Made by a program: the position numbers and the translations under genes. A DNA stretch of 61,006 bases, the filler included. It is 5 parts of 5 records of this genome, joined end to end, with 100 filler letters (N's around TTAATTAATTAA, not from the genome) between each part and the next. Parts side by side here need not be neighbours in the genome. Positions count along the whole stretch, not along the records: positions 42,791 to 55,227 come from SRR20825006_2201; 4 more parts are not named here. One strand, written 5' to 3'. Under the pieces are notes generated by a model. The model was not told where the DNA came from. It saw only the letters and a list, made by a program, of their open reading frames with translations, and did not search any database. Below are positions 28,370 to 58,111 of the stretch, piece by piece (the stretch's first letter is position 1; every line of letters starts with the position of its first letter).

Positions 28370-28469
28370 NNNNNNNNNNNNNNNNNNNNNNNNNNNNNNN
28401 NNNNNNNNNNNNNTTAATTAATTAANNNNNNNNNNNNNNNNNNNNNNNNNNNNNNNNNNNNNNNNNNNN
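28370..28469. other. artificial contig linker
   Basis: N-run, TTAATTAATTAA, N-run. Confidence 0.98.
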
Positions 28470-28519
28470 AATGTCAGCAACTTCGGCTGTATCGACAAAG
28501 AATTTCATGATTTCCTTCC

Positions 28520-41521: not shown

Positions 41522-42425
41522 TGCAAAAACTACAAGCGCATCAGGCGTAGAGCCACGCGGGCCGAAACCACGCCCCATGCTATCGCCGCGCAACATCATG
41601 ATTTACGGCACCTTGTTCATCGTCGCGATCTATTATGCATTGCCACTTTATGTGATGGTAGTCACCAGCTTGAAAGGCATGCCCGAAATCCGCCTAGGCA
41701 ACATATTCGCGCCGCCAGTTGAGGTGACGTTTGAACCTTGGGTAAAGGCGTGGGCTGAAGCTTGCACCGGGCTAAACTGTAATGGGTTGAGCCAAGGCTT
41801 TTGGAATTCAGTAAAAATTCTCATCCCATCGGCAGCGCTGTCGATCCTGATCGCTTCAATCAATGGCTACGCCTTGGCCAATTGGAAGTTCAAAGGCTCG
41901 GAGGTGTTTTTCACCATACTGATATTTGGTGCTTTTGTGCCTTATCAGGTGATCATCTATCCAATCGTGATCATTTTGCGGGAATTGAATTTGTTCGGCA
42001 AATTGGGTGGCCTCGTTATGGTGCATGTGATTTTCGGCATGCCAATCCTCACCTTGCTGTTCCGCAATTACTTCACTTCACTCCCCGAAGAGCTGTTTAA
42101 GGCGGCGCGCGTGGATGGGGCAGGGTTCTGGGGTATCTATTTTAGGATCATGCTGCCCATGTCTCTGCCCATCTTTGTGGTGGCGCTGATTTTGCAGGTC
42201 ACTGGGATTTGGAACGACTTCCTGTTTGGCGTGATCTACACCAAGCCGGACAATTACCCGATGACGGTGCAACTTAATAACATCGTCAACTCAGTGCAGG
42301 GCGTGAAGGAATATAACGTCAATATGGCTGCAACCATGCTCACGGGCATCGTGCCGCTCATCATCTATTTCGCATCAGGCAAACTATTCGTGCGCGGCAT
42401 CGCTGCTGGCGCGGTGAAAGGTTGA
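41511..42425 (+). CDS. carbohydrate ABC permease
   Basis: PEELFKAARVDGA, IWNDFLFG, FVRGIAAGAVKG. Confidence 0.92.
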   Translation: MANNAKTTSASGVEPRGPKPRPMLSPRNIMIYGTLFIVAIYYALPLYVMVVTSLKGMPEIRLGNIFAPPVEVTFEPWVKAWAEACTGLNCNGLSQGFWNSVKILIPSAALSILIASINGYALANWKFKGSEVFFTILIFGAFVPYQVIIYPIVIILRELNLFGKLGGLVMVHVIFGMPILTLLFRNYFTSLPEELFKAARVDGAGFWGIYFRIMLPMSLPIFVVALILQVTGIWNDFLFGVIYTKPDNYPMTVQLNNIVNSVQGVKEYNVNMAATMLTGIVPLIIYFASGKLFVRGIAAGAVKG

Positions 42426-42427
42426 TC

Positions 42428-42690
42428 ATGACCAGTGTTTCTATTCAAAATCTTGATCTTAATTTCGGCAGCGTCAATGTGCTGAAACAGTTGAACCTCT
42501 CTATCGAAGAAGGGGAGTTTCTGGTGCTGCTTGGCGCTTCAGGCTGCGGCAAATCCACGTTGCTCAATTGCATCGCTGGTTTGCTAGATGTGAGTGACGG
42601 GCAGATATTCATCAATGGCAAAAACGTTACTTGGGCCGAACCAAGCGAGCGTGGCATCGGCATGGTGTTTCAATCCTATGCGCTTTACCC
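42428..42690 (+). CDS. sugar ABC ATP-binding protein, N-terminal part
   Basis: GASGCGKSTLL, MVFQSYALY; truncated at linker. Confidence 0.9.
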
Positions 42691-42790
42691 NNNNNNNNNN
42701 NNNNNNNNNNNNNNNNNNNNNNNNNNNNNNNNNNTTAATTAATTAANNNNNNNNNNNNNNNNNNNNNNNNNNNNNNNNNNNNNNNNNNNN
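42691..42790. other. artificial contig linker
   Basis: N-run, TTAATTAATTAA, N-run. Confidence 0.98.
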
Positions 42791-42791
42791 G

Positions 42792-43925
42792 CTCTATGTC
42801 GGCTTCTTCGCCTTCATCATTGGCAATTTCTCTCTTCTCGCAGGGATCGTCTTTGACAGTTTCGCGGAGCTTGGCGTGACCGCTGGCGGCGGGACCATGA
42901 CCGCCGATGATCTCCTGCGCCCCGGCTTCATCGCCAGTGTCGGTCTCGACGCCGGTCAGCCGCTCTTGGAAGAGATCAGCGACATGCTGGGGCCAATCTC
43001 CTTCTTCCATAACTTCATCATGATCGCGGTGATGTTCATCGCCTGGGCGATCATCATGGTCGCCTTCTTCGTGCTGGCCGTGCAGCTCTTCATCACGATC
43101 CTGGAGTTCAAGCTGACGACGCTCGCCGGGTTCGTGCTCGTGCCGTTTGCGCTCTGGAACAAGACGACGTTCCTGGCTGAACGCGTCCTCGGCAATGTCA
43201 TCACCTCGGGCATCAAGCTGATGGTGCTTGCCGTCATTATTGGCATCGGCTCGACGCTCTTCTCATCCGTGACCGATGCGTTCCGTACCGGCGATGATGT
43301 GACGCTCGCGCAAGTCATGGGCACGGTGCTCGCCGCGATCGTCTTCTTCTGGATGGGCATCTTTGCGCCCGGCATCGCCTCCGGCCTGATCACCGGTGCG
43401 CCGCAACTCGGCGCGGGTTCCGCCGCAGGCGCGGCCGCCGGTGTCACAGCCGGAACCTATGTCGCCGGGATGGGCGGCCGCGCTGCCGTCGGCGCCGTCG
43501 CGGGCGGGGCGTCCTCCGCCGTCAAGGCCGGCGCCAGCATGGCCGGCGCGGCGCGCACTTCTTATACGCTGGGATCGGTCGCCTCTGGCGCATCCGGCGC
43601 AGCGGGCGTCGCCGCAGGCCTTGCCGGTGTCGCCCGTGCAGGCGGCGACGCTATGCGTCGCACAGCATCGCGCCCGGCTCAAGCCCTCAGAGACGCCTAC
43701 CAACGCGGCAGTCAGGGCGCCTGGCGCGCCACCGGCGGGTCTGAGGCCGCGTCCATGCAAAACTCTGCCTCCGGATCATCATCAAGCCAAAGCCCCGGCT
43801 GGGCGCGGCGCATGCAGGCGAGCCAGCGCATGGGACAGGCAGGCCAGATGGCCGCGCACTCCCTGCGCGACGGTGATCGCGGCGCTTCGGGCGCAAACCC
43901 CACCCTCAGAGACAAGGACGACTAG
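42792..43925 (+). CDS. trbL: P-type conjugative transfer protein TrbL (5' truncated)
   Basis: LYVGFFAF, QLFITILEFKLTTLAGFVLVPFALW, FLAERVLG, GAPQLGAG, Ala/Gly-rich tail. Confidence 0.93.
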   Translation, partial: LYVGFFAFIIGNFSLLAGIVFDSFAELGVTAGGGTMTADDLLRPGFIASVGLDAGQPLLEEISDMLGPISFFHNFIMIAVMFIAWAIIMVAFFVLAVQLFITILEFKLTTLAGFVLVPFALWNKTTFLAERVLGNVITSGIKLMVLAVIIGIGSTLFSSVTDAFRTGDDVTLAQVMGTVLAAIVFFWMGIFAPGIASGLITGAPQLGAGSAAGAAAGVTAGTYVAGMGGRAAVGAVAGGASSAVKAGASMAGAARTSYTLGSVASGASGAAGVAAGLAGVARAGGDAMRRTASRPAQALRDAYQRGSQGAWRATGGSEAASMQNSASGSSSSQSPGWARRMQASQRMGQAGQMAAHSLRDGDRGASGANPTLRDKDD

Positions 43926-43928
43926 ACG

Positions 43929-44129
43929 ATGGCTTTCAGGCGATCCTCCTCCAGCTATGGACCAAGCCCGTTTCCCGAAACGCCTTACCAGAAGGCGGGC
44001 CAGATCTGGGAGTTCGCAGCCGGTTTGCCGCAGGCAAAACAATCCATCCGGGGGATGGATTGTAGGCGAAGAACGCCGCGGCAGCGGCCCGCAGGCTCCC
44101 GCTTCAACCCAACAAGACAGGAGGTCTGA
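43929..44129 (+). pseudogene. truncated duplicate of trbF 5' end interrupted by palindromic element
   Basis: First ~27 codons MAFRRSSSSYGPSPFPETPYQKAGQIW match TrbF start MAFKRSSSSYGRSPFPETPYQKAGQVW, then diverge. Confidence 0.75.
44038..44062. repeat. palindromic miniature element core
   Basis: ACAATCCATCC-GGG-GGATGGATTGT perfect 11-bp inverted repeat. Confidence 0.7.
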
Positions 44130-44132
44130 TCT

Positions 44133-44825
44133 ATGGCGTTCAAGCGTTCATCTTCAAGCTACGGCCGCAGCCCGTTCCCCGAGACGCCATATCAGAAGGC
44201 CGGACAGGTCTGGGATGAAAGAATAGGCTCCGCCCGCGTGCAGGCGAAGAACTGGCGGCTCATGGCGCTCGGCTGTCTCGGGCTCTGCTTCGTCACCTCC
44301 GGCGCGCTGGTCTGGCGCTCGATGCAATCCACCGTCACGCCCTATGTGGTCGAAGTCGATGAGACGGGTGCGGCCCGCGCTGTGGCTCCGGCCACGACAA
44401 GCTACACGCCGACCGATGCCCAGATCGCCCATCACCTTGCGAACTTCATAGAACATGTCCGGGGGCTTTCCGTTGACCCTGTCGTCGTCCGCGAGAACTG
44501 GCTGCGCGCCTATGACTTCGTGACCGACCGCGCCGCCACCACGCTCAACGAATACGCCTCCGCCAATGATCCTTTCGCCGATGTCGGGCGCAAATCCCGC
44601 ACCGTGGACGTGGTCAGCGTGGTTCGCGTCTCGGAGGACAGCTTCCAGGCCCGCTGGATCGAGAAGACCTATGAGAATGGTGCGCTCGTCAGCGCCCAAA
44701 GGTTCACCGGCAATTTCACAATCATCACCCAGCCGCCGACGGATGCAGAGACCCTGCGCGCCAATCCGCTCGGCCTTTATGTCCATGCCCTGAACTGGGG
44801 TCAGGACCTCGTTACAGGAGAATGA
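44133..44825 (+). CDS. trbF: conjugal transfer protein TrbF (VirB8-like)
   Basis: PETPYQKA.QVWDERIGSARVQA.NWR, DPVVVRENWLRAY, NPLGLYV. Confidence 0.95.
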   Translation: MAFKRSSSSYGRSPFPETPYQKAGQVWDERIGSARVQAKNWRLMALGCLGLCFVTSGALVWRSMQSTVTPYVVEVDETGAARAVAPATTSYTPTDAQIAHHLANFIEHVRGLSVDPVVVRENWLRAYDFVTDRAATTLNEYASANDPFADVGRKSRTVDVVSVVRVSEDSFQARWIEKTYENGALVSAQRFTGNFTIITQPPTDAETLRANPLGLYVHALNWGQDLVTGE

Positions 44826-45868
44826 TCCCCATGCTTCGTATTCTGCTTGCCACTTCGGCCCTCGCACTTACCACGGCCTGCGCCACGACCGAGCTTGAAC
44901 CTATCGATGCGAGCGCCTTTGTCGCGGCCAAGCCCGTCGAGGATAGGACCGACTATCCGGTGGAGATCGTCGAAACCGCCGTCGCGCTGCCGCTGCCCGG
45001 CCAGATGATGCCCATCGGCGCGCGTGTCACCACCAATGCCGATGGCAGCGTGACGCGGACCTACACAAGGACGATATCGCGTCCCTCAGTGTCACCGGCT
45101 GAAGCCATCAGACAGGGCCGCACCGGCGCGCTTATCGAACCTTCGGTCGATGGCTATGTGAACGCGATCCAGGTCTATCCCTATACAGAAGGCGCGCTCT
45201 ACCGGCTCTATGCCAGCCCCGGACAGGTTTCGGACATTGCCCTGCAGCCGGGCGAGGAACTGGTCTCGGTCTCGGCAGGCGACACGGTCCGCTGGGTCGT
45301 GGGCGATACGATCTCCGGCTCTGGAAACACTTCCCGCGCGCATGTGCTGGTCAAACCGATTTCCTCCGGCATTCGCACCAATCTGATGATCGCCACGGAC
45401 CGGCGCACCTATCATCTGGAACTTGAAAGCACGGGCGGCGGCTATATGGCCGCTCTGTCCTGGCGCTACCCCGCGGATGAACTCGCAGGCCTCACTGCCC
45501 GCAATGAGCGCGCGATCGCACGGGACGCGGGAAGCATTGAGCGCGGCCTGACGCTGGAAGGCCTGAACTTCGACTATCGCCTCTCCGGCGACAGTCCGGA
45601 CTGGAAGCCTGTCCGCGTCTTTGATGATGGCCGTCAGGTCTTCATCCAGATGCCGGAGGACATCGCCACAACCGACATGCCGCCGCTTTTCGTGCTCGGC
45701 ACGGACGGTGATGCGGAACTGGTGAACTACCGTGTGCGCGGCAATTATTATGTCGTGGACCGGCTGTTCCGTGCGGCCGAGTTGCGCCTCGGCGAGCGGA
45801 ACCAGACCGTGGTGCGAATCTCACGCAACGAGCGGCGCTCGCCGCTGGCTGGCCTGTTCGGGAACTGA
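44822..45868 (+). CDS. trbG: P-type conjugative transfer protein TrbG (VirB9-like)
   Basis: NAIQVYPY..GALY, GDTVRW, TDRRTYHLEL, RVFDDG, LVNYRV. Confidence 0.95.
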   Translation: MIPMLRILLATSALALTTACATTELEPIDASAFVAAKPVEDRTDYPVEIVETAVALPLPGQMMPIGARVTTNADGSVTRTYTRTISRPSVSPAEAIRQGRTGALIEPSVDGYVNAIQVYPYTEGALYRLYASPGQVSDIALQPGEELVSVSAGDTVRWVVGDTISGSGNTSRAHVLVKPISSGIRTNLMIATDRRTYHLELESTGGGYMAALSWRYPADELAGLTARNERAIARDAGSIERGLTLEGLNFDYRLSGDSPDWKPVRVFDDGRQVFIQMPEDIATTDMPPLFVLGTDGDAELVNYRVRGNYYVVDRLFRAAELRLGERNQTVVRISRNERRSPLAGLFGN

Positions 45869-45872
45869 GCCG

Positions 45873-47150
45873 ATGTCCGAGCCCATTCCCTTCGACGAAC
45901 ATGCCGAGCGGCTGAAGATCCGCTCCAGCCCGAAGCCGGTGACGCGGATCAATCGCAAAGTATTGATGGTCGGCGCAGGCCTCGGCGTGCTCGCCCTGTT
46001 CGCAGCCATGAGCGTTGCCCTCAAACCGCCAACCGCTACCGATCCGGATGCCCGTCGCGAGCTCTACAACACGACGAACACGCGCAAGCCCGAAGGTCTC
46101 TCAACGCTTCCGACCAGCTATAGCGACATCACATCCGTCGAGGACCGCGTCACGCGTCTTGGCCCACCGCTTTCGGGCGATCTCGGCGCGACCATGCTGC
46201 GCGCCGAACGCGAGCTCGGTATCGAACCGGAATATGTGACCCGGTTCGAGGATGACTTTCGCCCGAACCCAGCCGACGAGGCCGAACGTGCAAGGCGCAT
46301 GCGCGAGGCCGCCCTTGCCGATGAAGCCGCCCGCGCACCGGTCTTTTTCCGACTCGATTCTCAGAGCGGCACGGCAAGCACCACCGACACCCGTCCTGCT
46401 TATCGAGACCCCGCGCTTGATCTGGGTTCTGAGCTTCTGGCGCTCGCCGCTCTGCCGCAAGGCGCACGGTCCGCTTTCGGACAGCCTATCGATACAAATC
46501 TCCAGTCCCGCAAGCTCGCCTTTACGAGCGAAGGACCAGCAAGCGACATCTACAATCCACACGGCGTGGAAGACCCTGCCTCGCCGTATCAGGTCATGGC
46601 TGGCACGCTCATTCCGGCTTCAATGGTCACGGGCATCAACTCAGACCTGCCGGGCACGATCGTCGCGCAGCTCACCCAGCCCGTCTATGACACCGTCACC
46701 GGCCAATACCTCCTCATCCCGCAGGGCTCGCGCCTGATCGGGCGCTACCAGTCGGAAGTCTCTTTCGGGCAGGACCGCGCACTCGTGACCTGGGACCGGA
46801 TCATCTTCCCGGACGGGTCGTCGATTGTGATTTCCGCGCCAGGCGCTGATGCGCAAGGCTTTGCGGGTCTCTCGGATCGAACCGATCATCATTGGGACCG
46901 CGTGTTCATCGCAGCAGGCCTCGCCACCATTCTCGGCGTCGGCGCAGAACTCGGTGCAGACGGTGACGGCGATCTCGAACGCGCGATCCGACGCGGCACG
47001 ACCGACACCGTCAACCAGGCCGGCCAGCGCGTCGTCGAACGCAACCTTGGCATTCAGCCGACGGTCCGTGTGCGGCCGGGCTGGCCCGTGCGCGTGGTCG
47101 TCACCCGCGACCTCATCCTCAGACCCCATCCACAAGGAACAAGCAGATGA
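45873..47150 (+). CDS. trbI: TrbI/VirB10 family protein
   Basis: AGTLIPA..VTGINSDLPG, VYDTVTG..LLIPQGSRLIG, IQPT..VRPG. Confidence 0.95.
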   Translation: MSEPIPFDEHAERLKIRSSPKPVTRINRKVLMVGAGLGVLALFAAMSVALKPPTATDPDARRELYNTTNTRKPEGLSTLPTSYSDITSVEDRVTRLGPPLSGDLGATMLRAERELGIEPEYVTRFEDDFRPNPADEAERARRMREAALADEAARAPVFFRLDSQSGTASTTDTRPAYRDPALDLGSELLALAALPQGARSAFGQPIDTNLQSRKLAFTSEGPASDIYNPHGVEDPASPYQVMAGTLIPASMVTGINSDLPGTIVAQLTQPVYDTVTGQYLLIPQGSRLIGRYQSEVSFGQDRALVTWDRIIFPDGSSIVISAPGADAQGFAGLSDRTDHHWDRVFIAAGLATILGVGAELGADGDGDLERAIRRGTTDTVNQAGQRVVERNLGIQPTVRVRPGWPVRVVVTRDLILRPHPQGTSR

Positions 47151-47383
47151 CCCTACGCCTTGGACAGTTACCCGATCGCACCCCGGTGCGTATGAGCCTC
47201 TCGGTCGATCCCGACCTCGCCAGCGCCCTCAGCGACTATGCCGAAATCTACCGGCAAACCTATGGCGCGGAGGAAAAGCCCGAAGCGCTCATCCCCGCCA
47301 TGATCGAAAGCTTCCTGGCGTCAGATGCCGGGTTCAAACGGGCGCGCCGCGCCCTTCATTCCAACGCCAGCAAAGGAGACTAA
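47147..47383 (+). CDS. DUF2274 domain protein
   Basis: LRLGQLPDRTPV...L.DYA..Y...YG...LIPAM..FLASD; typical after trbI. Confidence 0.9.
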   Translation: MTLRLGQLPDRTPVRMSLSVDPDLASALSDYAEIYRQTYGAEEKPEALIPAMIESFLASDAGFKRARRALHSNASKGD

Positions 47384-47386
47384 CCC

Positions 47387-47701
47387 ATGGCGCAGATCGG
47401 CACGTTCACCCTGAAAGATGGCAGCTATACCGGCACCATCCGCACCATGACCATCAACGTCAAAGCACAGCTTGTCCCGAACAGTGACAAGGCATCAGAT
47501 GGCGCACCCGACTTCCGGCTCTATGCCGGCGGGGCCGAACTCGGTGCGGCCTGGCGTCAGGAAAGCAAGGACGGCGAAACCCCGTACCTCGCCGTCAAGC
47601 TCGACGATCCAAGCTTTGCCAGCCCCGTGCGCGCCGCCTTCTTCGAGAATGAAAAGGACGGCACCGGCGTCATGGTCTGGAACCGGACGAAGACCAACTA
47701 G
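47387..47701 (+). CDS. DUF736 domain protein
   Basis: MAQIGTF, APDFR, ELGAAW, VKLDDPSF. Confidence 0.92.
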   Translation: MAQIGTFTLKDGSYTGTIRTMTINVKAQLVPNSDKASDGAPDFRLYAGGAELGAAWRQESKDGETPYLAVKLDDPSFASPVRAAFFENEKDGTGVMVWNRTKTN

Positions 47702-47720: not shown

Positions 47721-47918
47721 ATGAGCCTCAGCCTGCATGATCTTGAAAAAGGCCGCCGCATTGCGGCGCTCGTCGTGCGCCATTGCGGTGAGAAGTATTT
47801 TCCCCTGTTCGACCGGTTCGACCGGGAAGTCCGCGAGCGGGCCTCGGCGGCCGACCGGATCGAGGACGCCATCGGCGCGAACATGCCCGCTCGGCCGAGA
47901 AAGCGAGGGCGCTCTTGA
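47721..47918 (+). CDS. small hypothetical protein
   Basis: 65 aa MSLSLHDLEKGRRIAALVVRHCGEKYFPLFDRFDRE...; fills operon gap. Confidence 0.55.
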   Translation: MSLSLHDLEKGRRIAALVVRHCGEKYFPLFDRFDREVRERASAADRIEDAIGANMPARPRKRGRS

Positions 47919-47968
47919 TTTCCTCAGAAAGAACCGCTATATATCCCTTCAGTGGAAAGGATCGCTCA

Positions 47969-48346
47969 ATGTCCCAAACAGCAGCCATCGACGCACAGGA
48001 ACGGGCACGGGTGATGACCATGGCCGTGGTCCGGGCCGCTGAAAAGCTTGGTCTTTCCGGGAAGGACATGGCCCTGATTTTGGGGGTTTCGGAACCGACC
48101 GTGTCGCGGATGCGCAAGGATGAGTTCCGGCTGGAGGAAGGCACCAAGCCGTTTGAACTGGGAGCGCTGTTCGTTCGCCTGTTCCGGTCGCTTGATGCGA
48201 TCACCGGCGGCGACGGCAAGGTGGCCAACGCCTGGCTACGCAATGAAAACCGGGCGCTTGGCGGTCGTCCACTCGATCAGATCAAGACGATTACAGGACT
48301 GACCCATGGCCTTGCCTATCTGGATTCCAGACGCGCTCCGCTCTGA
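47969..48346 (+). CDS. Xre/MbcA/ParS family antitoxin
   Basis: HTH ALILGVSEPTVSR; LFVRLFRSLDAI.GGD, WL..EN.ALG.RP. Confidence 0.9.
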   Translation: MSQTAAIDAQERARVMTMAVVRAAEKLGLSGKDMALILGVSEPTVSRMRKDEFRLEEGTKPFELGALFVRLFRSLDAITGGDGKVANAWLRNENRALGGRPLDQIKTITGLTHGLAYLDSRRAPL

Positions 48347-49088
48347 GCGGCAAGGCGTATCCCGCGTTTTCTGGCGCTGCGTGGAGGCGCAACACATCGT
48401 CTCCACGCTTCAGCTTGTTGATACGCTGGATGAGCAGCGTATTCTCGAAGACATGCTCGAAGAAACAAAGCCGCCTGTACCCCCCGACTGCGCAGGGCTC
48501 CACTATCTCTACATGACGCCGTTCCGCTACGGCCTCTATCCGAACGGCTCGCGGTTCCGCCGCGCCGGACCGACGCCCGGCGTCTATTATGTGTCCGAAG
48601 AACCGGCGACAGCGATCATCGAAACCGCGTTTCATTTGCTGCTCTTCTACGCAGACTCTCCGGGCACGCCATTTCCGGCGCAGCCGAGCGAGCACACCGC
48701 ATTCGACGTGCCGGTCCGCACCGACGCAGCCATAGATCTCATGTCAAAGCCATTTAGCGACGCTGCCAACCTCTGGACGCATCCAAACGACTACGAAGCG
48801 TGCCAGCAACTCGAAGAAGCTGCGCGTGCGGAGAGTATCGGGCTGATCCGCTATGCGTCAGTGCGCGATCCCGAGCACCGGCCAAATGCGGCTATTCTCT
48901 CCTGCGCCGCCTTCGCCGCCGCAACCCCGACACAAAACCAGACCTGGCGGCTATGGTTCAACAAGACAGGCGTGCACACGATATGTGAGTTTCGGGGAGA
49001 AAGATTTGGTATTCCAGCGCTTGCATGGGAAACCGACGAAAGACTCAAGCGACTGTTTTCTGCAGATACCACGCAGAAAACTCCATAA
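48306..49088 (+). CDS. RES family toxin (NAD+ phosphorylase/mART-like)
   Basis: WRCVE (R), GSRFR, TAIIE (E), IRYASVR (S); overlaps antitoxin. Confidence 0.9.
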   Translation: MALPIWIPDALRSERQGVSRVFWRCVEAQHIVSTLQLVDTLDEQRILEDMLEETKPPVPPDCAGLHYLYMTPFRYGLYPNGSRFRRAGPTPGVYYVSEEPATAIIETAFHLLLFYADSPGTPFPAQPSEHTAFDVPVRTDAAIDLMSKPFSDAANLWTHPNDYEACQQLEEAARAESIGLIRYASVRDPEHRPNAAILSCAAFAAATPTQNQTWRLWFNKTGVHTICEFRGERFGIPALAWETDERLKRLFSADTTQKTP

Positions 49089-49133: not shown

Positions 49134-50555
49134 ATGGAAAAAACACAGAATGAGCGCACTGTCCTCTTCGTCACAAAAGCGACGCCAGAGGATAATGAAT
49201 TCACAGAGTGGCTCGCCCCGCGCCTTGAGGCTGCAGGATACCAGGTTTTCGCCGACATTCTGAATCTCGAAGGAGGTGAACGCTGGCGAAAAACATTGAC
49301 CCGTACTTTGCAGGACCGGGCGGTAAAGCAATTGCTGATTTGCGCCGGAGATGGCTTGCATAAAAACGGCGTGCAGGAAGAAATTGGCATTGCAGCCGAC
49401 GTCTCCCGCACGACCGGTGATGAAAAATTCACGATACCGCTTCGCGTTAGGAGCTTCCGCAAAGTCTTCGGCATGGGAGAACTACAATATCTGAACTTCG
49501 AGGATAGCTATGCGGATGGTCTCGCTGATCTGTTAGAGACGCTCGAAAAGCAGAACGTCCCAAAACTCAATGAACCTTTGATTCAGCCGCAATGGGAGCA
49601 GCACCGAAGGCGAAATGAGATCAGACTGGAAAACCGCGCCGAAACCCTGACCAGCAATTGGGTCGCGATCGAAAACGCGCCAGACGAGATCGCTTATGTC
49701 GCGCCGACTGGACCTTGCGATCGCGACAAGCTGAAAAGGCGCGCGAACAGCTTCGCTTTTCCCACTTATCCTCACTTATCTGGTTTCATCACCTTCGCTT
49801 CCCCCTTGGAAATGGCCGAGCATTTCGAGGGGTTCGGACCGATCAAGACGATTGCTACGAGTCGCCTTTCATCTTTCATGGAAAAGGGGTGGTCGGAACT
49901 CGACATAAAGAGTCGTGAAGCCAAAAATATTTTAGTCGCGCTATTCCGTCAGGCCTGGGAGCGACGTCTCTCTTCGATCGGGTTTCAAGAATATGGGTGG
50001 GCGAGCGGTCTCGGGCATCATGCCGCCCCCGCGCAGATTCGCATCAACGAACGCGTGGCATGGGGGCCAAAGGAAGGCAAGCGTAGGTCGGTTCTGCGGA
50101 ACGTCGCAAAGGGGCGGGTTTGGTCCTACGGCGTGAGCGCAATTCCCAATCTCTATCCCTTCCCCCATTTCCGGCTCAAGGCTCGGGTTCTGTTTTCGGA
50201 TATCAAGGAAAACGCTAAAGGAGATGAGGACCGTCAGGGCAGCATCATCGACGATAAGGAGAGGCAGCACCGTCATCGGCGCAGCGACTGCAAGGGCTGG
50301 AGGAACAAGTCCTGGCACGGTCGCATGATGGCGTTTCTGGAGCTTGTGGCGGGAGGCGATTCCTATATCTCACTTCCCATCGGCGCGGGCGGCAATCTCG
50401 TCCTCAACGTAATGCCTATACAGATGATTTCACCGGTGACGACACCGATCGTCCATGACGACGAGGACGCCGAAGAAACTGATCCCTCGACTCTGGCTGG
50501 CGATTTTGACCCCGAGGATGGGGATACCTCCGATGAAGAGGAGGCGCAGAAATGA
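49134..50555 (+). CDS. TIR-APAZ protein (SPARTA effector subunit)
   Basis: N-terminal TIR (ATPEDNEF..WL..RL...GY.VF.DI, GVQEEI), APAZ-like region (SNW, WSYGVS, GWRNKSW), acidic C-tail; translationally coupled to pAgo. Confidence 0.88.
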   Translation: MEKTQNERTVLFVTKATPEDNEFTEWLAPRLEAAGYQVFADILNLEGGERWRKTLTRTLQDRAVKQLLICAGDGLHKNGVQEEIGIAADVSRTTGDEKFTIPLRVRSFRKVFGMGELQYLNFEDSYADGLADLLETLEKQNVPKLNEPLIQPQWEQHRRRNEIRLENRAETLTSNWVAIENAPDEIAYVAPTGPCDRDKLKRRANSFAFPTYPHLSGFITFASPLEMAEHFEGFGPIKTIATSRLSSFMEKGWSELDIKSREAKNILVALFRQAWERRLSSIGFQEYGWASGLGHHAAPAQIRINERVAWGPKEGKRRSVLRNVAKGRVWSYGVSAIPNLYPFPHFRLKARVLFSDIKENAKGDEDRQGSIIDDKERQHRHRRSDCKGWRNKSWHGRMMAFLELVAGGDSYISLPIGAGGNLVLNVMPIQMISPVTTPIVHDDEDAEETDPSTLAGDFDPEDGDTSDEEEAQK

Positions 50556-52105
50556 AATTTGACGTCGTTACGCCGAGACTTATTCACCTCCCGGAACCAG
50601 CTCTCTCATTCGGTTTCGGTCAATCGACGGACCATCCCAAAGACGGGCTATATCTCTACGGACCCCACAAAGCGGATGATCGCAACAAGGTCATCACCAT
50701 AGGCGTCATCGGCACAACAGAGGGACTGGAATATTTCCGGCGCTGGGGGCGCAGCGTGCTCGGCGATGTGCTCGTGCCGCCCCCAAAAAAGACGGACAAG
50801 GAACATCGTCTCCATCTCAGCAATTTTCCGGGGATGCCTGCGGCCTTTGGTGTTAGCTTCGACCCCCGAGACTTCATTGAATACGTGGTCGACGGCGACA
50901 AGATTGAGACAACCACAGCCCTGCAAAACCACCATGAAGCGGTCGCCCAGACAGTTGAAGTTTTTCTCGAACGCGTTCGCCATCATGACGAAAACGAAGA
51001 AAGACGTCCCGACGTCTGGGCGTTTGTCCTGCCAGAAATTATCTATACGCGTTGCACACGCCAGGCTCGGCGCAGCGGCGTGACTCTATCTCCTGGCGAA
51101 TATGTGAAGCGTCAGAAGCAGCGCAGCAACTTGCCGCTTCTGGAAGATGTAATCGATCTTACGAAAGAAGACATCTTCGATGACGTTCCGGACTTCCATC
51201 GTCAGGCAAAAGCCAAGCTTCTGAAGCTGGGCTACACTTCGCAGCTCGTGCGGGAAACAACGCTTGCGCCGGAAGCATTCACAAATGCCCACGGCTATCC
51301 TATCCGCGGTGTCCAGGATGCAGCCACAATTGCCTGGAATCTGGCTACTGGTCTCTACTACAAAACGCAGGCCGAACCGCCGTGGAAGATCGCTAATATG
51401 CGCGATGGCGTCTGCTATGTTGGGCTCGTCTTCAAGAACCTCCCAAATGACAGGAACAATCATGCATGCTGCGCGGCACAGATGTTTTTGTCAGAAGGCG
51501 ACGGGATCGTCTTCCGTGGAGCAAATGGCCCTTGGCAAACGGAAAACGGCGAGTTCCACTTGAAGAGCACCGCCGCCCGGGATCTCATCGGCAAAGTCCT
51601 TGAGACGTATGAGGAGAAATTCGGCGCACCCCCAAAGGAACTCTTCATCCACGGGCGCGCTGGATTTTCGAGCGAAGAATGGCGCGCCTTTGAGGCAGCC
51701 GCTCCCAAGGAAACGAATATCGTCGGTGTTCGAATTAAGACGACGACCGGCCAGGTGAAGCTGTTCCGGGACGGAAAGTATCCAACCTTGCGCGGCACGG
51801 CCATGATCCTCGATCAGAATAACGCCTTCCTCTGGACATCCGGCTACGCACCGAGATTGGACACATACATTGGTCCAGAAACGCCAAACCCTCTGAACGT
51901 GACTGTACTAAAGTCATCCGGCGAAAGACCGGATATTGAAACGGTGCTGTCCGACATCTTGGCGTTGACGAAAATCAACTACAACGCCTGCAACTACTCG
52001 GACGGCCTGCCCGTCACCATCCGATTCGCGAATAAAGTCGGTGACGTTCTGATTATGGGTAGCGCGAGAGGCGGCGGAAAGCAGCCGTTCAAATTCTATA
52101 TCTGA
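50552..52105 (+). CDS. short prokaryotic Argonaute (MID-PIWI, catalytically inactive)
   Basis: EP.L.FG..Q...HPKDGL.LYGP, SQLVRETTL, AWNL.TGLYYK, CYVGLVFK, FIHGR, LTKINYNAC, PVTIRFA, C-terminal PFKFYI; 517 aa; DEDX aspartates absent. Confidence 0.93.
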   Translation: MKFDVVTPRLIHLPEPALSFGFGQSTDHPKDGLYLYGPHKADDRNKVITIGVIGTTEGLEYFRRWGRSVLGDVLVPPPKKTDKEHRLHLSNFPGMPAAFGVSFDPRDFIEYVVDGDKIETTTALQNHHEAVAQTVEVFLERVRHHDENEERRPDVWAFVLPEIIYTRCTRQARRSGVTLSPGEYVKRQKQRSNLPLLEDVIDLTKEDIFDDVPDFHRQAKAKLLKLGYTSQLVRETTLAPEAFTNAHGYPIRGVQDAATIAWNLATGLYYKTQAEPPWKIANMRDGVCYVGLVFKNLPNDRNNHACCAAQMFLSEGDGIVFRGANGPWQTENGEFHLKSTAARDLIGKVLETYEEKFGAPPKELFIHGRAGFSSEEWRAFEAAAPKETNIVGVRIKTTTGQVKLFRDGKYPTLRGTAMILDQNNAFLWTSGYAPRLDTYIGPETPNPLNVTVLKSSGERPDIETVLSDILALTKINYNACNYSDGLPVTIRFANKVGDVLIMGSARGGGKQPFKFYI

Positions 52106-52117
52106 CGGAGAACATGA

Positions 52118-53635
52118 ATGGTCTATGTAAATGGAACCGCACATATCCGTCACGCTCAGAGCGGTCAGGTCTATGAGATTGATGCCGACATGCTCGACTT
52201 CGAAAGCGTCTCCAGTGAAGAACGCAGCATGGGACCGGAAACAGCCTATTCGGCAGTCGTTGAACATCCGGAGCTTGGGCAGCTCACCTGGTCGATTTGG
52301 GAATATCCAATAGGCGCAGAAAATTATCGCGAGACCGATGTCGGCCCGCATGAATTGCTGAACAACCTTGAGTTTGGACTGGAACACGAACCGCCAGACC
52401 CGGACGAAGACGGCGACGAAAGAATAGACGAAGAAGACCGACAGGCGCAGATAGACGCGCTGGTTGAATGGTTCTTTGAGCGTTATGAAGATCCGGCCCA
52501 GCGGCTACCCTATATCAGCGCCGAAGGCGGCTACCAATGGATTTATGGCGGCCCTTACGATGCACGCGAGGAACTGGCTGAGAACTTCCCAGACTTGCCC
52601 GACGACGTCATCGAAGCTGCTGTCGATGAAATCGAATCTGACGGATTGACGGATTGGGCACCCGTCGCAAGTGCCGAGGACTATGATCAGTATGAGGACA
52701 ACGAGCCGGATGATTTAGAAGTTTCCGCAATCGCGCGCGACCTTGAAGATTTAATTCAAGGCCTTCCAGAGGCCGTTGCTGAGCCAGCGTTTGAGGTCGG
52801 CGGTGATGGCCTGATCCATATGGCGATCCCTCCTGATGCGACGACGCCGGATGCGAACAACCCTTTGCTCGATGAGTTACGTGAGGCAACGCAGGATTTA
52901 CTACACGAACTCAATGGAACGAATGCGCATACGGATCTTCTGAATGCCGTGCAGCGCTATCACGCTACCATCAGCGCTGATTCGATTTCTATTTCGCAGG
53001 TTTATTCTCGCGGCATACGGCTGGCGAACGTCGGTGAGGCAACCGAAAAAGCGATCGCGCGGGACTATCTTCCGTCATTCCCGTTGAGTGTTGAGGCGCA
53101 TCTGTCCTCTGTGCTGGACCTGAACCGCGCTTACATTATGGCCCACCCGGAAGGACGCAGGATCGCCGAGAATTCTGCCGCCTATCAACGGACGCCATCA
53201 GATACAGAAGCAATGCGAAGGGCCGCGGATGATTTTGCCGATGCCGTTGCCAGTGCACGAAGCCTGTTTGCCGATGACGTCCGCGAACTCGTTGTACAGG
53301 CATCGTCGCAGATAGGGCACGGCCCCCAGCCAGGCCGGTCGAATCAGAACGCCGCACACACGTTCGGCAACCTGACTCGGTTCATTCTAAAGCAAGTTGG
53401 GACCGCAGCCTTGTTCACAGGCGCCGCTCTCGGCGGCGCGGCAATCACGGGAAGTATTCCGGGCGGGGCGTTGGCTGCAACCGGAACCGAGTACATCAAT
53501 TTATGTTGGAGCTTTTTGGTCGCAAACGCATCCGCCCTTCACGCGATTGCCGCCTCCTTTGGCGCAGACTTGTCCTGGATGTCGTCTGCTGCGCACATTC
53601 TCGAGCGACACAAAGCGCAAAAGCCTGACTCATGA
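52118..53635 (+). CDS. hypothetical multidomain acidic protein downstream of pAgo
   Basis: 505-aa ORF, GGAG RBS, 12 nt after pAgo stop; motifs WEYPIGA and WFFERYEDPA..PY...EGGYQW..GGPYDA; Gly/Ala-rich hydrophobic C-terminus. Confidence 0.8.
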   Translation: MVYVNGTAHIRHAQSGQVYEIDADMLDFESVSSEERSMGPETAYSAVVEHPELGQLTWSIWEYPIGAENYRETDVGPHELLNNLEFGLEHEPPDPDEDGDERIDEEDRQAQIDALVEWFFERYEDPAQRLPYISAEGGYQWIYGGPYDAREELAENFPDLPDDVIEAAVDEIESDGLTDWAPVASAEDYDQYEDNEPDDLEVSAIARDLEDLIQGLPEAVAEPAFEVGGDGLIHMAIPPDATTPDANNPLLDELREATQDLLHELNGTNAHTDLLNAVQRYHATISADSISISQVYSRGIRLANVGEATEKAIARDYLPSFPLSVEAHLSSVLDLNRAYIMAHPEGRRIAENSAAYQRTPSDTEAMRRAADDFADAVASARSLFADDVRELVVQASSQIGHGPQPGRSNQNAAHTFGNLTRFILKQVGTAALFTGAALGGAAITGSIPGGALAATGTEYINLCWSFLVANASALHAIAASFGADLSWMSSAAHILERHKAQKPDS

Positions 53636-55066
53636 TTTTGCGGAGCCGCCGACTGCCCAGAGTACATTTTCGCGATCAAACAACTCCATCACCCGAGGAT
53701 CAAACGGGTGGATGATCTTGAGCAGTTCGTCACGCCGATACTCAAGCGAGCCACCGTCGCCATAGACGGGTCTTGTCGTCTTGTGGCCCATGAGCAGGCA
53801 TCGCAGGCCGTAGTCGATATTGGCTTCCTGCATGCGTTTCTCGAAGGCGTGGCGGAATGAGTAGATCTTGTGGTCGGGCGACTCCAGCAGGCCGCGATTG
53901 CGGAAGTTCTTCATCATGTTGGCGGAGAAAAGCTCGCCCTTGTCGTAGTAGTGGGCAAAGGCTTTCGGCGCCGCGCGCTTTGCCGCTTCGAGTGCGATGC
54001 CGACCAGCGGAATGTCCCTCTCGGAGGTGTCGGTCTTCACTTCGCGGTCCGTCCGTGCGCGGATGGAGATGTAGGGCACCGGCTCATCAATGTGAAAATC
54101 TTCAACGCGTAGGTTGATGATCTCACTCGGTCGGCATCCTGTCTCGATCAGCATCAGCGTAATGAGCTGCAGTTCCGGCCGCCATTTACGGGTAGCACCC
54201 GGCGCAAGAATCTTCTCCCGCACCCAGTTGGATGAGAATGGCGGCACTTCGGTTCTCGCCTTCGCCTTGAAGTGCATATTGCGGAAGGGGTTCGGACGTT
54301 CCTCTTCGCCAATGTGCTTGAAGTAATCGGCATAGAGCGAACGGATATTGCCGATGTGACGGTTAGCGGTGTTAGGCGCGACCGGCTTTGCGTTCTGATC
54401 CTTGGGTCTGACCTGTTTGGCCCAGTGCTTCTGGTAATTGAGCGCGAGGTCACGGGTGATCTCCTCAAGGGCAATGTCACCGGCAAAGTCGATAAAATAC
54501 TGAACTGAGGTTCGCTTAGTTTTCTCCCACGATGCGCGTTGGTTCGGCGATTTGTACAGCTGCGCGTTGTACGCGATCTCGTTCACATAGACTTCGAAAG
54601 CCTCGGACACGCTGACAGTCGGTTTCGGCGCGCCGCCAAGCAGCGCTTCGGCGTCCCGCACTTTGGGGATTTCGGCGGGCCCTGCGTTCTGATGAACCGC
54701 AAGCAGCCGTGCCAGCGCCTCTTCAAGCGGCGCAACAGTCGCGAGATGGTCGATGGGCTGATAGGTGAAGCCGCTCGCCAGCGCCTTGACGGTCGCCATG
54801 CGATAGCGGCGACGAACGGCCTCCGAAGTTTCCCGACTGGATGAGGGCCCGACCTCTTCGGCGATCTTCAACGATGCCCAGTGATGGTCATCGGCTTCGG
54901 CCAGCAAGTCGCGCTTGTAGCGAGCCTGGTCGATTGAAGTGGTCCCCAGCGATTCCTTGATCCGCTTGCGCGAATCAAGGTGCGCGAACTTACTCGGCAC
55001 ACGGCGGTTATACCACCAGACGCGGCCTCGCTGTTCGAGGTAGGAATTGTCGTCGACGCGCTTCAT
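53630..55066 (-). CDS. tyrosine recombinase/integrase with N-terminal arm-binding (DUF6538-like) domain
   Basis: YL.QRG..WWY.RRVP, TGCRPSEI, VKT, YSFRH, LMGH, YG. Confidence 0.9.
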   Translation of the reverse strand: MKRVDDNSYLEQRGRVWWYNRRVPSKFAHLDSRKRIKESLGTTSIDQARYKRDLLAEADDHHWASLKIAEEVGPSSSRETSEAVRRRYRMATVKALASGFTYQPIDHLATVAPLEEALARLLAVHQNAGPAEIPKVRDAEALLGGAPKPTVSVSEAFEVYVNEIAYNAQLYKSPNQRASWEKTKRTSVQYFIDFAGDIALEEITRDLALNYQKHWAKQVRPKDQNAKPVAPNTANRHIGNIRSLYADYFKHIGEEERPNPFRNMHFKAKARTEVPPFSSNWVREKILAPGATRKWRPELQLITLMLIETGCRPSEIINLRVEDFHIDEPVPYISIRARTDREVKTDTSERDIPLVGIALEAAKRAAPKAFAHYYDKGELFSANMMKNFRNRGLLESPDHKIYSFRHAFEKRMQEANIDYGLRCLLMGHKTTRPVYGDGGSLEYRRDELLKIIHPFDPRVMELFDRENVLWAVGGSAKS

Positions 55067-55077
55067 GACGCCGACCA

Positions 55078-55110
55078 TTGGTCCACAATCTGGTCCCATT
55101 TTGGTCCACA
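55078..55110. repeat. direct repeats, candidate integrase arm-type sites
   Basis: TTGGTCCACA (55078), TGGTCCCA (55091), TTGGTCCACA (55101) between integrase start and tRNA end. Confidence 0.55.
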
Positions 55111-55200
55111 GATTCCGGCCATTTTATGCAAAGCGAAGCAAACGAGATCAAAAATATCGTTTAACTTCAATGCTTTACACGGAAACCATTTCGAGAGAAA

Positions 55201-55227
55201 TGGCGCGAGTGACGGGGCTCGAACCCG
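55201..55227 (-). tRNA. tRNA 3' portion (probably tRNA-Asp) / att site, truncated by linker
   Basis: Reverse complement CGGGTTCGAGCCCCGTCACTCGCGCCA = T-arm + acceptor strand + CCA; anticodon not visible, identity from resemblance to alphaproteobacterial tRNA-Asp. Confidence 0.75.
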
Positions 55228-55327
55228 NNNNNNNNNNNNNNNNNNNNNNNNNNNNNNNNNNNNNNNNNNNNTTAATTAATTAANNNNNNNNNNNNNNNNN
55301 NNNNNNNNNNNNNNNNNNNNNNNNNNN
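55228..55327. other. artificial contig linker
   Basis: N-run, TTAATTAATTAA, N-run. Confidence 0.98.
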
Positions 55328-56460
55328 AGGCGCGACTGGATGTTTTCCTCGGTCAGGCCCGGTTCCATCCCTTCGAACAGCGGAGCCAGCGTGTTGGTGA
55401 TCGCGGCGCGGCCTTCGGCGATGGGGACATAGTCATAGTGACAGCCCAGCGCCTTGGCACAGGCCTCGGCATCCTCGAGGCTTTCGGGGCTGGTGTATTC
55501 CGACGGCAGCATCACGCAGCGCACGTTTTCTGGGCCGATGGCATCGGCGGCAATGGTGGCCACCAGCGCACTGTCGACGCCACCCGACATGCCCAGCAGC
55601 ACTTTCTTGAAGCCCGTCTTGGCCATGTAATCGCGCAGGGCCAGGACCATGACGTGATAATCCTGCTCCCATGCGTCCGGCTGCGGGGCGATATCGCCCT
55701 CGACCACGCGCCAGCCATCGGGGGTGCGTTCCAGATCGACATGGGTGATTGCCTCGGACATCACGGGCATCCGCATCGCCAGCTTGCCACCGGGGTTCAG
55801 CGCAAAGGACGCGCCGTCGAAGACCTGGTCGTCCTGACCGCCCACCATGTTCAGGTAGATCAGCGGCAGGCCGGTTTCGACCACGCGGGCGACCATCTGG
55901 TTCAGCCGCGTTTCCATCTTGTCGCGGTAATAGGGCGATCCGTTCGGCACCAGCAGGAACTCGGCCCCCGTCTCTTGCAGCGTTTCGGCCACGTCCTCGT
56001 GCCATGCGTCTTCGCAGATCGGGCTGCCGACGCGGGCGTTGCCCACGCTGTAGGGGCCGCCCAAGGGCCCCGCATCAAACACCCGCACTTCGTCAAAGAC
56101 GGTCTCATTGGGCAGATGATGCTTCAGCACGCGGCTGACGATGCGCCCACCGCGACAGATCAGATAGGCGTTGAACAGTTCGGTCCCCTCGACCCAGGGG
56201 CAGCCGATGGCCAGCGTCGGCCCGTCGGCACAGTCCACCGCCAGCGCCTTGACCGCCTCGATGGCCGCGGTGTGGAACGCGGGCTTCATCATCAGGTCCT
56301 GCGCGTTGTAGCCGGTGATGAACAGCTCGGGCAGTGCGACCATATCGGCCTTGGCATCGCGGCCGGCCTCCCATGCGGCGCGGGCCTTGGCGGCATTGCC
56401 GTCGATGTCACCGACAGTGGGGTTCAGCTGCCCCAGGGTGATACGAAAAGTGTCGGCCAT
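55328..56460 (-). CDS. nadE: glutamine-dependent NAD+ synthetase (3' truncated)
   Basis: Nitrilase domain (PELF, K..LPN, ICED) followed by GMSGGVDSA and EENIQSR. Confidence 0.95.
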
Positions 56461-56656
56461 GTCTGCACTCCGAAAATTGCTTGATTGCCCCTATACGGTC
56501 TGGCTGCGCGGCGTGAAAGACCCCAGCCGCCAAATCGCGGCGACCACGCGCTTGTGTTGCCTTATGGGGCGGCAAAGCCATTGCGACCCCCTCGCGGTTT
56601 CTTTACCCTTTGGTAACGATCCACGGGGCCCTCCCCTTCATCGCCAAAGGTGCCAA

Positions 56657-58111
56657 ATGTCCACACGCAGCCTGATTTTTTGCCTCGCCCTGCTTCCTGC
56701 CATCGCCCATGCGCAGGACGGCCAGGTCCTGACCAAGCAATATGACGACGGCGGCATCTATGAAGGGACGTTCAAGAACGGCCTGCAAAACGGCACCGGC
56801 ACCTATCGGCTGCCCAATGGCTATGAATACACCGGCACCTGGGTCGACGGCGAGATCAAGGGCGAAGGCGTGGCGCGGTTTCCCAACGGGTCTGTCTACG
56901 AGGGCAACTTTGAAAAGGGCAAGCCCGACGGATTTGGCAAGATCACCTTTGCCGATGGCGGCACCTATGAAGGCGACTGGGAAACCGGCGCGATCATGGG
57001 TCAGGGCGTGGCGCTGTATGCCAACGGGGTGCGCTATGAGGGCGCGTTCCGCAATGCCAAGCACCACGGCAAGGGCGTCATGCAGAGCCCGGGCGGTTAC
57101 GAATACAAGGGCGACTGGGTGGACGGTGTCAAACAGGGTGTGGGCACGATCACCTATCCCGATGGCGCGGTCTATGACGGCGAGATTGCCAATGGCGAAC
57201 GCGATGGCACCGGCACGCTGACCATGCCCGATGGGCTGGTCTATGAGGGCAAATGGGTGAACGGGCAGATCGACGGCAGCGGCAAGCTGGCCCAGCCCAA
57301 CGGCGACGTCTACGAGGGCGACCTTGTCGCCGGGCGGCGCGAGGGCAAGGGTCGTGTGACCTATGCCAATGGCGATGTCTACGAGGGCGATTTCAAGGAT
57401 GACCGCCGCGACGGCACCGGCACGTTCATCGGCAACGACGGCTATACCTATATCGGCAACTGGGTCGAGGGTCAGATCGAGGGCAAAGGCCGCGTGACCT
57501 ATCCCGACGGGTCCGTCTACGAGGGGGATTTCCGCGATGATCTGGCCGATGGCACGGGCAAGATCACCTATGCGGACGGTGCGACCTATGAGGGTCAGTG
57601 GACCGCGGGCGTGATCGAGGGAGAAGGCAAGGCAACCTATCCCAACGGGGTCGTCTACGAAGGCAGCTTCAAGAACGCCAAGAACGACGGTCAGGGTTTG
57701 ATGACCTATGCCGACGGCTACAAATACGAGGGCGGCTGGCAGGATGGCCAGCGTCAGGGGCCGGGCAAGGCAACCTATCCCGACGGCACGGTCTATGAAG
57801 GCAACTTTGAGGACGGCCAGCGCCACGGCACCGGCAAGATCGTGATGGCGGACGGGTTCATCTACGAAGGCGAATGGGTGCGCGGCGAGATCAGCGGCGC
57901 GGGCACCGCGACATATGTGAACGGCGATGTCTACGAGGGCACCTTCCGCGCGGGCAAACGTCAGGGCAACGGCACCATGCGCTATGCCACCGGAGAAGAA
58001 GCCACCGGCGACTGGGACAACGGCGCGCTGAAAGAGGAAGCGGCAGCAGAGGGCGCGGCCGCACCCCAGCAGGAACCGGCAGCGGAACAGACACCCGGTC
58101 AGGGCGGCTAA
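56657..58111 (+). CDS. secreted MORN-repeat protein
   Basis: Signal peptide followed by many 23-aa YEG.W/F..G...G.G...Y.DG repeats. Confidence 0.92.
   Translation: MSTRSLIFCLALLPAIAHAQDGQVLTKQYDDGGIYEGTFKNGLQNGTGTYRLPNGYEYTGTWVDGEIKGEGVARFPNGSVYEGNFEKGKPDGFGKITFADGGTYEGDWETGAIMGQGVALYANGVRYEGAFRNAKHHGKGVMQSPGGYEYKGDWVDGVKQGVGTITYPDGAVYDGEIANGERDGTGTLTMPDGLVYEGKWVNGQIDGSGKLAQPNGDVYEGDLVAGRREGKGRVTYANGDVYEGDFKDDRRDGTGTFIGNDGYTYIGNWVEGQIEGKGRVTYPDGSVYEGDFRDDLADGTGKITYADGATYEGQWTAGVIEGEGKATYPNGVVYEGSFKNAKNDGQGLMTYADGYKYEGGWQDGQRQGPGKATYPDGTVYEGNFEDGQRHGTGKIVMADGFIYEGEWVRGEISGAGTATYVNGDVYEGTFRAGKRQGNGTMRYATGEEATGDWDNGALKEEAAAEGAAAPQQEPAAEQTPGQGG

Follow-up and report, generated by a model that had tools for sequence, protein, structure and literature searches.

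A modular candidate defence gene behind a SPARTA pair at the end of an integrative conjugative element

On a stretch of assembled DNA of 61,006 nucleotides (nt), hereafter the window, the gene for a short prokaryotic Argonaute (pAgo) is directly followed by a gene for an uncharacterized protein of 505 amino acids (aa), located at 52118–53635 on the + strand. The pAgo gene and the preceding TIR-APAZ gene form a SPARTA defence system, and the locus raises the question of whether the third gene is a further component of this system or a defence gene in its own right. The original prediction, made from the sequence of the window, had named both possibilities. We favor, with a probability of about 0.55, the reading that it encodes an autonomous modular protein similar to those of abortive infection (Abi), whose N-terminal domains are sensors and whose helical effector is directed to the membrane, and that it travels as cargo of an integrative conjugative element (ICE) and is probably read from the SPARTA transcript. 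The gene would then probably be a separate defence gene sharing this transcript, and not a SPARTA subunit.

The open reading frame (ORF) starts with ATG 12 nt after the pAgo stop (52105), and the spacer (52106–52117) contains the sequence GGAG at 52107–52110, 7 nt before the start codon, as a ribosome-binding site (RBS); both had been predicted. The gene call (P0001) is supported by the ORF itself, homologues, the structure model, and the pattern of substitutions. In line with the claim that no terminator is evident, a consensus scan detected no terminator-like site on the + strand after 50187, and it detected no promoter-like site after 49928; the scan has low power, since the 13 terminator-like sites it found compare with 9.9 ± 3.3 expected. 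Judging by this operon-like arrangement, with both genes on the same strand, a 12-nt spacer with its own RBS, and no terminator-like site seen, the 505-aa gene and SPARTA are probably located on one transcript.

A word-indexed search revealed 98 homologous clusters at E ≤ 1e-3, of which approximately 75 are full length (483–525 aa). Few of them have a named source, which is alphaproteobacterial in these cases, and all are annotated as hypothetical. The 64 clusters of 483–524 aa with at least 94% query coverage were aligned and are referred to below as the family. An exhaustive search of cluster representatives returned 1935 at E ≤ 1e-3 and 149 at E ≤ 1e-30, many of which share only a part of the protein. 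In a tblastn search of 72,556 plasmid records, no full-length homologue was found, and single-domain matches were present in 48. The ratio of nonsynonymous to synonymous substitution rates (dN/dS) of the 505-aa gene was 0.11 relative to a 95%-identical copy (locus L007), while that of the pAgo gene in the same comparison was 0.06; the dS values were 0.227 and 0.245, respectively. Because dN/dS is low and the two dS values are nearly equal, the gene is functional, under purifying selection, and co-inherited with pAgo on the time scale of this comparison.

The modular layout proposed in the original prediction was recovered. The motif WEYPIGA occupies residues 61–67, the motif EDPA...GGPYDA spans residues 124–149, the acidic linkers lie at residues ~91–104 and 191–214, and the Gly/Ala-rich part of the tail at residues 429–454. 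An AlphaFold2 model of the protein, built from the 64-sequence alignment, has a mean predicted local distance difference test score (pLDDT) of 86.1, with values below 50 in the first acidic linker (92–101), at residues 194–196 within the second linker, and in a Gly-rich segment at 435–452. The N-terminal domain (residues 1–90; 52118–52387, + strand), delimited by conservation in the family alignment and by the model, is an all-beta domain with nine strands in residues 2–88 and pLDDT of 92–97. Its invariant residues are H50, L53, G54, W58, E62, Y63, P64, and H78. This domain matched no named family, and a search of the ESM Atlas with residues 1–95 yielded no usable match.

The second domain (residues ~105–190; 52430–52687, + strand) is helical with a long loop in the model (105–190) and has invariant residues W118, F119, P126, G137, G138, G144, A149, and W180. 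The resemblance to N-terminal modules of HEPN/RES defence proteins, which had been proposed for this region, found support in Pfam. PF18870 (HEPN/RES N-terminal domain 1, HEPN/RES-NTD1 or NTD1) matches residues 110–187 with an E-value of 2.6e-4 and 21.8 bits, which is below the Pfam cut-off of 27.4, and 45 of the 64 family members match it at E ≤ 1e-3. Scores of 38.7 and 49.3 bits were obtained for two relatives (P0140 and P0163). Over this stretch, there is also a match at 3.9e-16 to PHROG 17908, a family of unknown function. Neither a HEPN nor a RES domain was found in the 505-aa protein by the Pfam search.

The C-terminal module consists of a helical part (residues 215–404; 52760–53329, + strand), modelled as two short hairpins and seven helices in residues 224–397, and a hydrophobic Gly/Ala-rich helical tail with basic residues at the end (residues 405–505; 53330–53632, + strand), modelled as four terminal helices in residues 405–501. 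When modelled alone, this module had a pLDDT of 86 and a predicted TM-score (pTM) of 0.83. Foldseek comparison of the whole model and of the C-terminal module with the PDB gave no match at E ≤ 1e-3 (best TM-scores ≤0.24), including no structural similarity to known pore-forming helical folds (colicin-like and others), and the whole model had no match at this threshold in BFVD. The family profile found only designed helical proteins among PDB sequences, at 1e-3 or weaker, and residues 200–505 retrieved only unnamed clusters from the ESM Atlas. The tail contains two hydrophobic helices, or a hairpin, flanked by basic residues in the family alignment. In Kyte-Doolittle profiles with a 19-residue window, the median maximum of the family tails is 1.79, reaching at least 1.6 in 42 of 64 members, and the median maximum outside the last 110 residues is 0.82. 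Nine shorter relatives with the beta domain and NTD1 (L021–L029) also have such tails, with values of 1.85–2.41 in eight of them. The hydrophobic tail is thus conserved in the family and is probably membrane-directed.

In Pfam searches, 30 relatives with different architectures and 17 encoded at the analyzed loci showed shuffling of these modules. NTD1 and the C-terminal module are preceded by DUF6979 with AbiJ_NTD4, by AbiJ_NTD4 alone, or by TPR, ankyrin, or TIR/SEFIR domains, and DUF7380 is followed by just the C-terminal module. The beta domain together with NTD1 is located upstream of a KAP NTPase in three proteins, and the beta domain upstream of SIR2_2 in L031; it occurs apart from the remaining modules in L030–L040 and L044. 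NTD1 is also paired with SIR2_2, HEPN_RiboL-PSP, TIR_2, or PIN_8. Since the modules combine with defence parts in this way, each of them behaves as a mobile part of conflict-system proteins, and the C-terminal module occupies the position of the enzyme in relatives. A mosaic origin of the gene, with an N-terminal half co-inherited with SPARTA and a swapped C-terminal half, was considered and rejected. The N-terminal domains are 71%–72% identical to those of the pAgo-less locus L008 versus 70%–73% for SPARTA-linked ones, and they represent no more than the family's conserved part. NTD1 and the layout of N-terminal domains plus effector are already known; neither the beta domain nor the C-terminal module is described in the libraries and literature searched. 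In the literature on short pAgo/SPARTA and on HEPN/RES-NTD1, we came across neither this family nor a SPARTA of three genes.

The genomic neighborhoods of relatives were analyzed in 80 loci (one genome per species, up to 10 kb on each side), which were searched by tblastn with the TIR-APAZ, pAgo, and integrase of the window. Full-length members represented 14 lineages: near-identical copies of the window element (L001–L007, counted once) and L008–L020. SPARTA was located directly upstream in three lineages, namely, the window type, L010 (Hyphomonas sp.), and L013 (Parvularculaceae), and no pAgo was present within the fetched span in the other 11. Defence or mobile-element neighbors were found in 11 of the 14 lineages. 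They include a Fic-domain PDC-S24, PDC-S06, and ICE genes in L008 and L009. The L012 member lies by the repressor region of a prophage similar to Mu, that of L014 by a HEPN/Toprim-NTD1 gene and a transposase, that of L015 by LmuB and an integrase, that of L016 by a DUF6161 protein similar to AbiZ, that of L017 by PD-T7-4, and that of L020 by a resolvase and a RES toxin. Homologues lying rarely near pAgo or defence genes would, according to the original prediction, have spoken against it; they do lie rarely beside pAgo, but mostly in defence or mobile settings.

Among 60 loci of partial relatives, pAgo was present in two. L067 (6723–10720) encodes a 1072-aa SIR2-APAZ-pAgo fusion followed 11 nt later by a 255-aa protein with an N-terminal HEPN/RES-NTD1-like domain (PHROG 17908 at 3.4e-18), which provides a second, unrelated example in which an NTD1 protein is encoded immediately behind a short pAgo. 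In L068, a DUF4365-APAZ/pAgo pair is located 6.7 kb from the partial relative. Conversely, 12 plasmid SPARTA loci were sampled, with pAgo 39%–58% identical to that of the window. Within 4 kb, none of them contained a relative of the 505-aa gene in either tblastn or family-profile searches, nor was a gene of the same orientation annotated within 100 nt after the pAgo in any of them. The relatives of the window pAgo comprise 3150 clusters at E ≤ 1e-20 versus 98 clusters for the 505-aa gene; the closest pAgo relatives (P0232 and P0233) have identities of 83%–84%. Co-occurrence with SPARTA across genomes was therefore not consistent. Because SPARTA adjoins only 3 of the 14 lineages and no relative was found in the 12 plasmid SPARTA loci, the family appears to be autonomous. 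The relevant passages of Koopal et al. (2022, PMC9097488) likewise describe SPARTA as functioning as a two-protein system and the APAZ protein as the only one specifically associated with short pAgos.

In the proposed scenario, the 505-aa gene became the last gene of the SPARTA transcription unit in this element lineage. The all-beta domain and HEPN/RES-NTD1 would act as the sensing or regulatory part, as suggested by the proposal, in the sections of Anantharaman et al. (2013, PMC3710099) dealing with Abi-like proteins, that their N-terminal domains bind viral targets. The C-terminal helical module with its hydrophobic hairpin, placed where relatives have an enzyme, would act on the inner membrane and thereby arrest or kill the infected cell. 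Of the possibilities named in the original prediction, an independent defence gene with a membrane tail replacing a nuclease fits best with the shuffled modules, the 11 lineages with defence or mobile settings, and the conserved tail.

The window consists of five contigs joined by four 100-nt spacers (12173–12272, 28370–28469, 42691–42790, and 55228–55327), each with two runs of 44 N flanking a 12-nt linker that has stops in all frames, and adjacency across the spacers is not genomic. The 505-aa gene and its neighbors lie wholly within a single contig (42791–55227), which begins in a TrbL gene and ends in a tRNA gene (55198–55227, − strand). In identical public copies (L001, L002 from Hyphomonas atlantica 22II1-22F38, and L005), a tRNA-Asp(GTC) gene at 13084–13160 of these loci is located about 100 nt past the integrase and is the likely integration site of the element. 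The contig contains, on the + strand, Pfam-assigned conjugation genes of an ICE for TrbL/VirB6 (cut by the contig end), VirB8, CagX, TrbI, DUF2274, and DUF736 (42876–47701), followed by a pair of an Xre-like antitoxin and a RES toxin (47915–49088; Pfam Xre_MbcA_ParS_C and RES) directly upstream of SPARTA. The latter comprises a 473-aa TIR-APAZ (49134–50555; Pfam TIR_2 6.6e-14, PADLOC Aga_TIR-PNTD1-PNTD2 3.5e-149) and a 517-aa short pAgo (50552–52105; PADLOC pAgo_I 2e-206), whose gene overlaps the TIR-APAZ stop by 4 nt. Downstream of the 505-aa gene, a convergent tyrosine integrase gene (53630–55099, − strand; Pfam DUF6538 and Phage_integrase) overlaps its end by 6 nt. From this order of conjugation genes, Xre/RES, SPARTA, 505-aa gene, and integrase, the 505-aa gene is cargo at the integrase end of an ICE. 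The G+C content is 0.51–0.585 for SPARTA, the 505-aa gene, and the integrase versus 0.61–0.67 for the conjugation genes.

Three ORFs cut at the spacers, namely, TrbL at 42876, a 106-aa ABC ATPase ORF (42422–42742), and a CN_hydrolase/NAD_synthase ORF (55276–56460), together with apparent 103-nt att repeats, could give the impression of a truncated ICE. This interpretation was rejected: the repeats are the N-run spacers, and since the ORFs cut at 42.7 kb and 55.3 kb abut these spacers, they reflect assembly joins and not biology. Elsewhere, a hypothetical gene and then a RES NAD+ phosphorylase gene are located within 3 kb of a Roseibium plasmid SPARTA (L081, 8041–8951), and a RES gene lies downstream of the family member in L020 (7483–7995). 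In the other contigs of the window, a 598-aa ORF with 13 MORN repeats (Pfam 1.5e-99) was found at 56315–58111, and the contig at 28470–42690 has a third-position G+C of 0.48–0.65, lower than in the neighboring contigs, and a transport/catabolic gene content (luciferase-like monooxygenase, aldehyde dehydrogenase, ABC transporters, LysR and LacI regulators).

Observations that weigh against an autonomous defence protein with a membrane-directed effector concern the tail, the defence role, and the link to SPARTA. The hydropathy maximum of the 505-aa protein itself is 1.38, below the value of 1.6 usual for a membrane helix, and the tail helices, which are confidently folded except for residues 435–452, could form the core of a soluble bundle in the model. 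No PADLOC or NCBIfam model matches the protein, and therefore its defence role is assigned by association. Three of the 14 lineages (L011, L018, and L019) lack recognizable defence or mobile neighbors. In L018 (8329–13414), the family member is located between proteasome-type (HslV-like) and AAA_2 (HslU-like) genes, in a locus that also contains polyketide-cyclase-like and glyoxalase genes and looks like an insertion into a housekeeping pair. The absence of matching defence models, these three lineages among housekeeping genes, and the carriage of family members on ICEs, a Mu-like prophage, and a resolvase-linked locus would suit a membrane protein of mobile elements with a role in element maintenance, exclusion, or stress response. 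We regard such a non-defence function as improbable, since the domains are common to proteins with SIR2, TIR, HEPN, PIN, and KAP NTPase effectors and AbiJ-type N-terminal domains, and the neighbors are often defence genes. A sensor or adaptor that needs a partner was also considered. In L010 (4187–5491), L013 (9874–11181), and L014 (11525–12826), a 433- to 435-aa HEPN/Toprim-NTD1 gene (HEPN_Toprim_N, E-values of 1e-50 to 1e-53) is located ~20–45 nt downstream of the third-gene homologue and has co-diverged with it (identities of 76% and 65% for the partner, 75% and 60%–62% for the third gene). The C-terminal half of the partner shows, by eye, an E...DxD pattern, which may be Toprim-like, and the L013 partner had no match among PDB sequences. 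The copy in the window would then be an orphan or work with another partner. This is very unlikely, because the partner occurs in only 3 of the 14 lineages, with no remnant in the window or the other fetched loci, and both proteins are built as self-contained units of an N-terminal domain followed by an effector, a layout outlined in the corresponding part of PMC3710099.

Another alternative would be a true third SPARTA component in this ICE-borne lineage, which binds pAgo or the activated complex or senses the outcome of TIR activity, and adds a membrane-directed arm to the NADase arm. It would be comparable to Aga2, which belongs to the SiAgo system, or to membrane effectors encoded with long-B pAgos, and such effectors of pAgo systems are indeed known, as far as the cited portions of two preprints describe them (bioRxiv 10.1101/2021.12.09.471704 and 10.1101/2023.03.09.531850). 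Besides the operon-like arrangement, the window, L007, L010, and L013 share a homologous junction (stop, RBS spacer, and start). It has been kept although the pAgo of L010 and L013, which are 90% identical to that of the window, have saturated dS (1.9–2.3). The TIR-APAZ/pAgo/third-gene block occurs in three genomic settings: with a DUF6538-type integrase and tRNA-Asp, with another integrase type and guaA, and between DUF3363 and traG. The equal dS of pAgo and the third gene in the nearest comparison (window–L007) and the unrelated pAgo fusion of L067 with an NTD1 protein 11 nt downstream point the same way. Between the window and L010/L013 loci, the third gene is only 51%–52% identical, and replacement of this gene was considered as an explanation of the difference from the 90% identity of pAgo. 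This explanation is weakened by the finding that dN of the third gene is about six times that of pAgo both within L010/L013 (0.136 versus 0.023) and between the window and L013 (0.418 versus 0.064). Because the ratio is the same in both comparisons, it fits long co-inheritance with fast divergence as well as it does separate acquisition. The complex prediction for pAgo (517 aa) with residues 1–480 of the third protein was weakly supportive, with a median score of 0.38 over three runs (0.54, 0.00, and 0.38) versus 0.00 for the best control, contact agreement between runs of at least 0%, and partner pLDDT of at least 69.

Several observations limit this alternative. In calibration, 51 of 78 solved complexes, 2 of 108 mismatched pairs, and 7 of 44 blind neighbors attained the pass mark of the complex prediction, but scores of ≤0.60 were obtained for only 5 of the 78 solved complexes and for all four passing mismatches (of 180); the tool rates a weak pass as more often wrong than right unless the guess is likely beforehand, and one of the three runs here scored 0.00. 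In a quick IQ-TREE tree (77 rows, root unknown, gains not separable from losses), the SPARTA-adjacent genes fall in two separate clades, and the nearest relatives of known setting lack pAgo for each; therefore, a minimum of two changes of the SPARTA label is needed. The L010/L013 subclade is accompanied by the HEPN/Toprim-NTD1 gene, and the same pair is present without SPARTA in L014. In L007 (5740–8438), an IS21-type element (IstA-like 502-aa ORF and IstB) replaces TIR-APAZ except for its last ~75–135 codons, and the pAgo (97% identical) and third gene (95% identical) remain intact beside it; as an argument against a joint function, it is an isolated instance, possibly of recent origin. Together with the 11 lineages lacking pAgo in the fetched span, the 12 plasmid SPARTA loci without a relative, and the activity of SPARTA with two proteins as given in the passages of Koopal et al. 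(2022, PMC9097488) considered here, these findings make a third component unlikely. The accessory role named in the original prediction is thus in part contradicted, and since the junction is conserved and the complex prediction weakly supportive, we leave it a small probability for this lineage. A more elaborate version would make SPARTA of this lineage a three-protein, two-effector system, in which guide-directed recognition of a target by pAgo/TIR-APAZ depletes NAD+ and releases the membrane-directed module of the third protein, either through contact with pAgo or because the beta domain and NTD1 sense NAD+-derived products or the loss of NAD+. HEPN/RES-NTD1, recurrent beside RES, SIR2, and TIR, would then be a coupling domain of NAD+-linked immunity. 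We consider this rather improbable, and prefer an autonomous Abi-like defence protein that shares the SPARTA transcript.

The family described here is uncharacterized and mostly alphaproteobacterial, with ~75 full-length clusters and many more proteins carrying its modules. Its conserved beta domain contains invariant His and Glu and lies outside any named family. At the position where relatives carry nucleases or NADases, it has a helical module that is probably directed to the membrane and for which no structural relative has been solved. If the family is a defence system, the known repertoire would be extended by a novel effector type and a novel sensor domain. An accessory role, if true, would make this the first SPARTA with an accessory effector and would offer a handle on the cooperation of defence genes sharing an operon.

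Among known systems, single-protein or two-gene defence systems with transmembrane effectors join cytoplasmic sensing domains to a C-terminal hydrophobic hairpin. The 505-aa protein, with its putative sensing domains and hydrophobic hairpin, resembles them in layout. With respect to SPARTA, the 505-aa gene directly follows a canonical pair, probably on the same transcript, while the system as presented in the pertinent passages of Koopal et al. (2022, PMC9097488) has two proteins and no other specific associate, and the gene is absent from all 12 plasmid loci. The SiAgo-Aga1-Aga2 and long-B pAgo systems, compared by their description in parts of the two preprints (bioRxiv 10.1101/2021.12.09.471704 and 10.1101/2023.03.09.531850), are similar in that a putative membrane protein is encoded with an inactive pAgo. 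There, the membrane protein is the sole and required effector, whereas a TIR NADase is already present here. Compared with HEPN/RES-NTD1 Abi-like proteins, whose NTD1 Anantharaman et al. (2013, PMC3710099) defined, in the relevant section, by its fusion to HEPN, RES, ABC ATPase, and novel domains, the 505-aa protein has no HEPN or RES domain, contains an extra unnamed beta domain before NTD1, and carries in the C-terminal position a helical module of ~290 residues with a hydrophobic tail and no PDB relative. It shares with these proteins, as described there, a probable NTD1 domain (PF18870, below the cut-off), the order of N-terminal domains followed by a variable C-terminal module, and the defence or mobile settings, and its own relatives carry HEPN, SIR2, TIR, PIN_8, and KAP NTPase domains.

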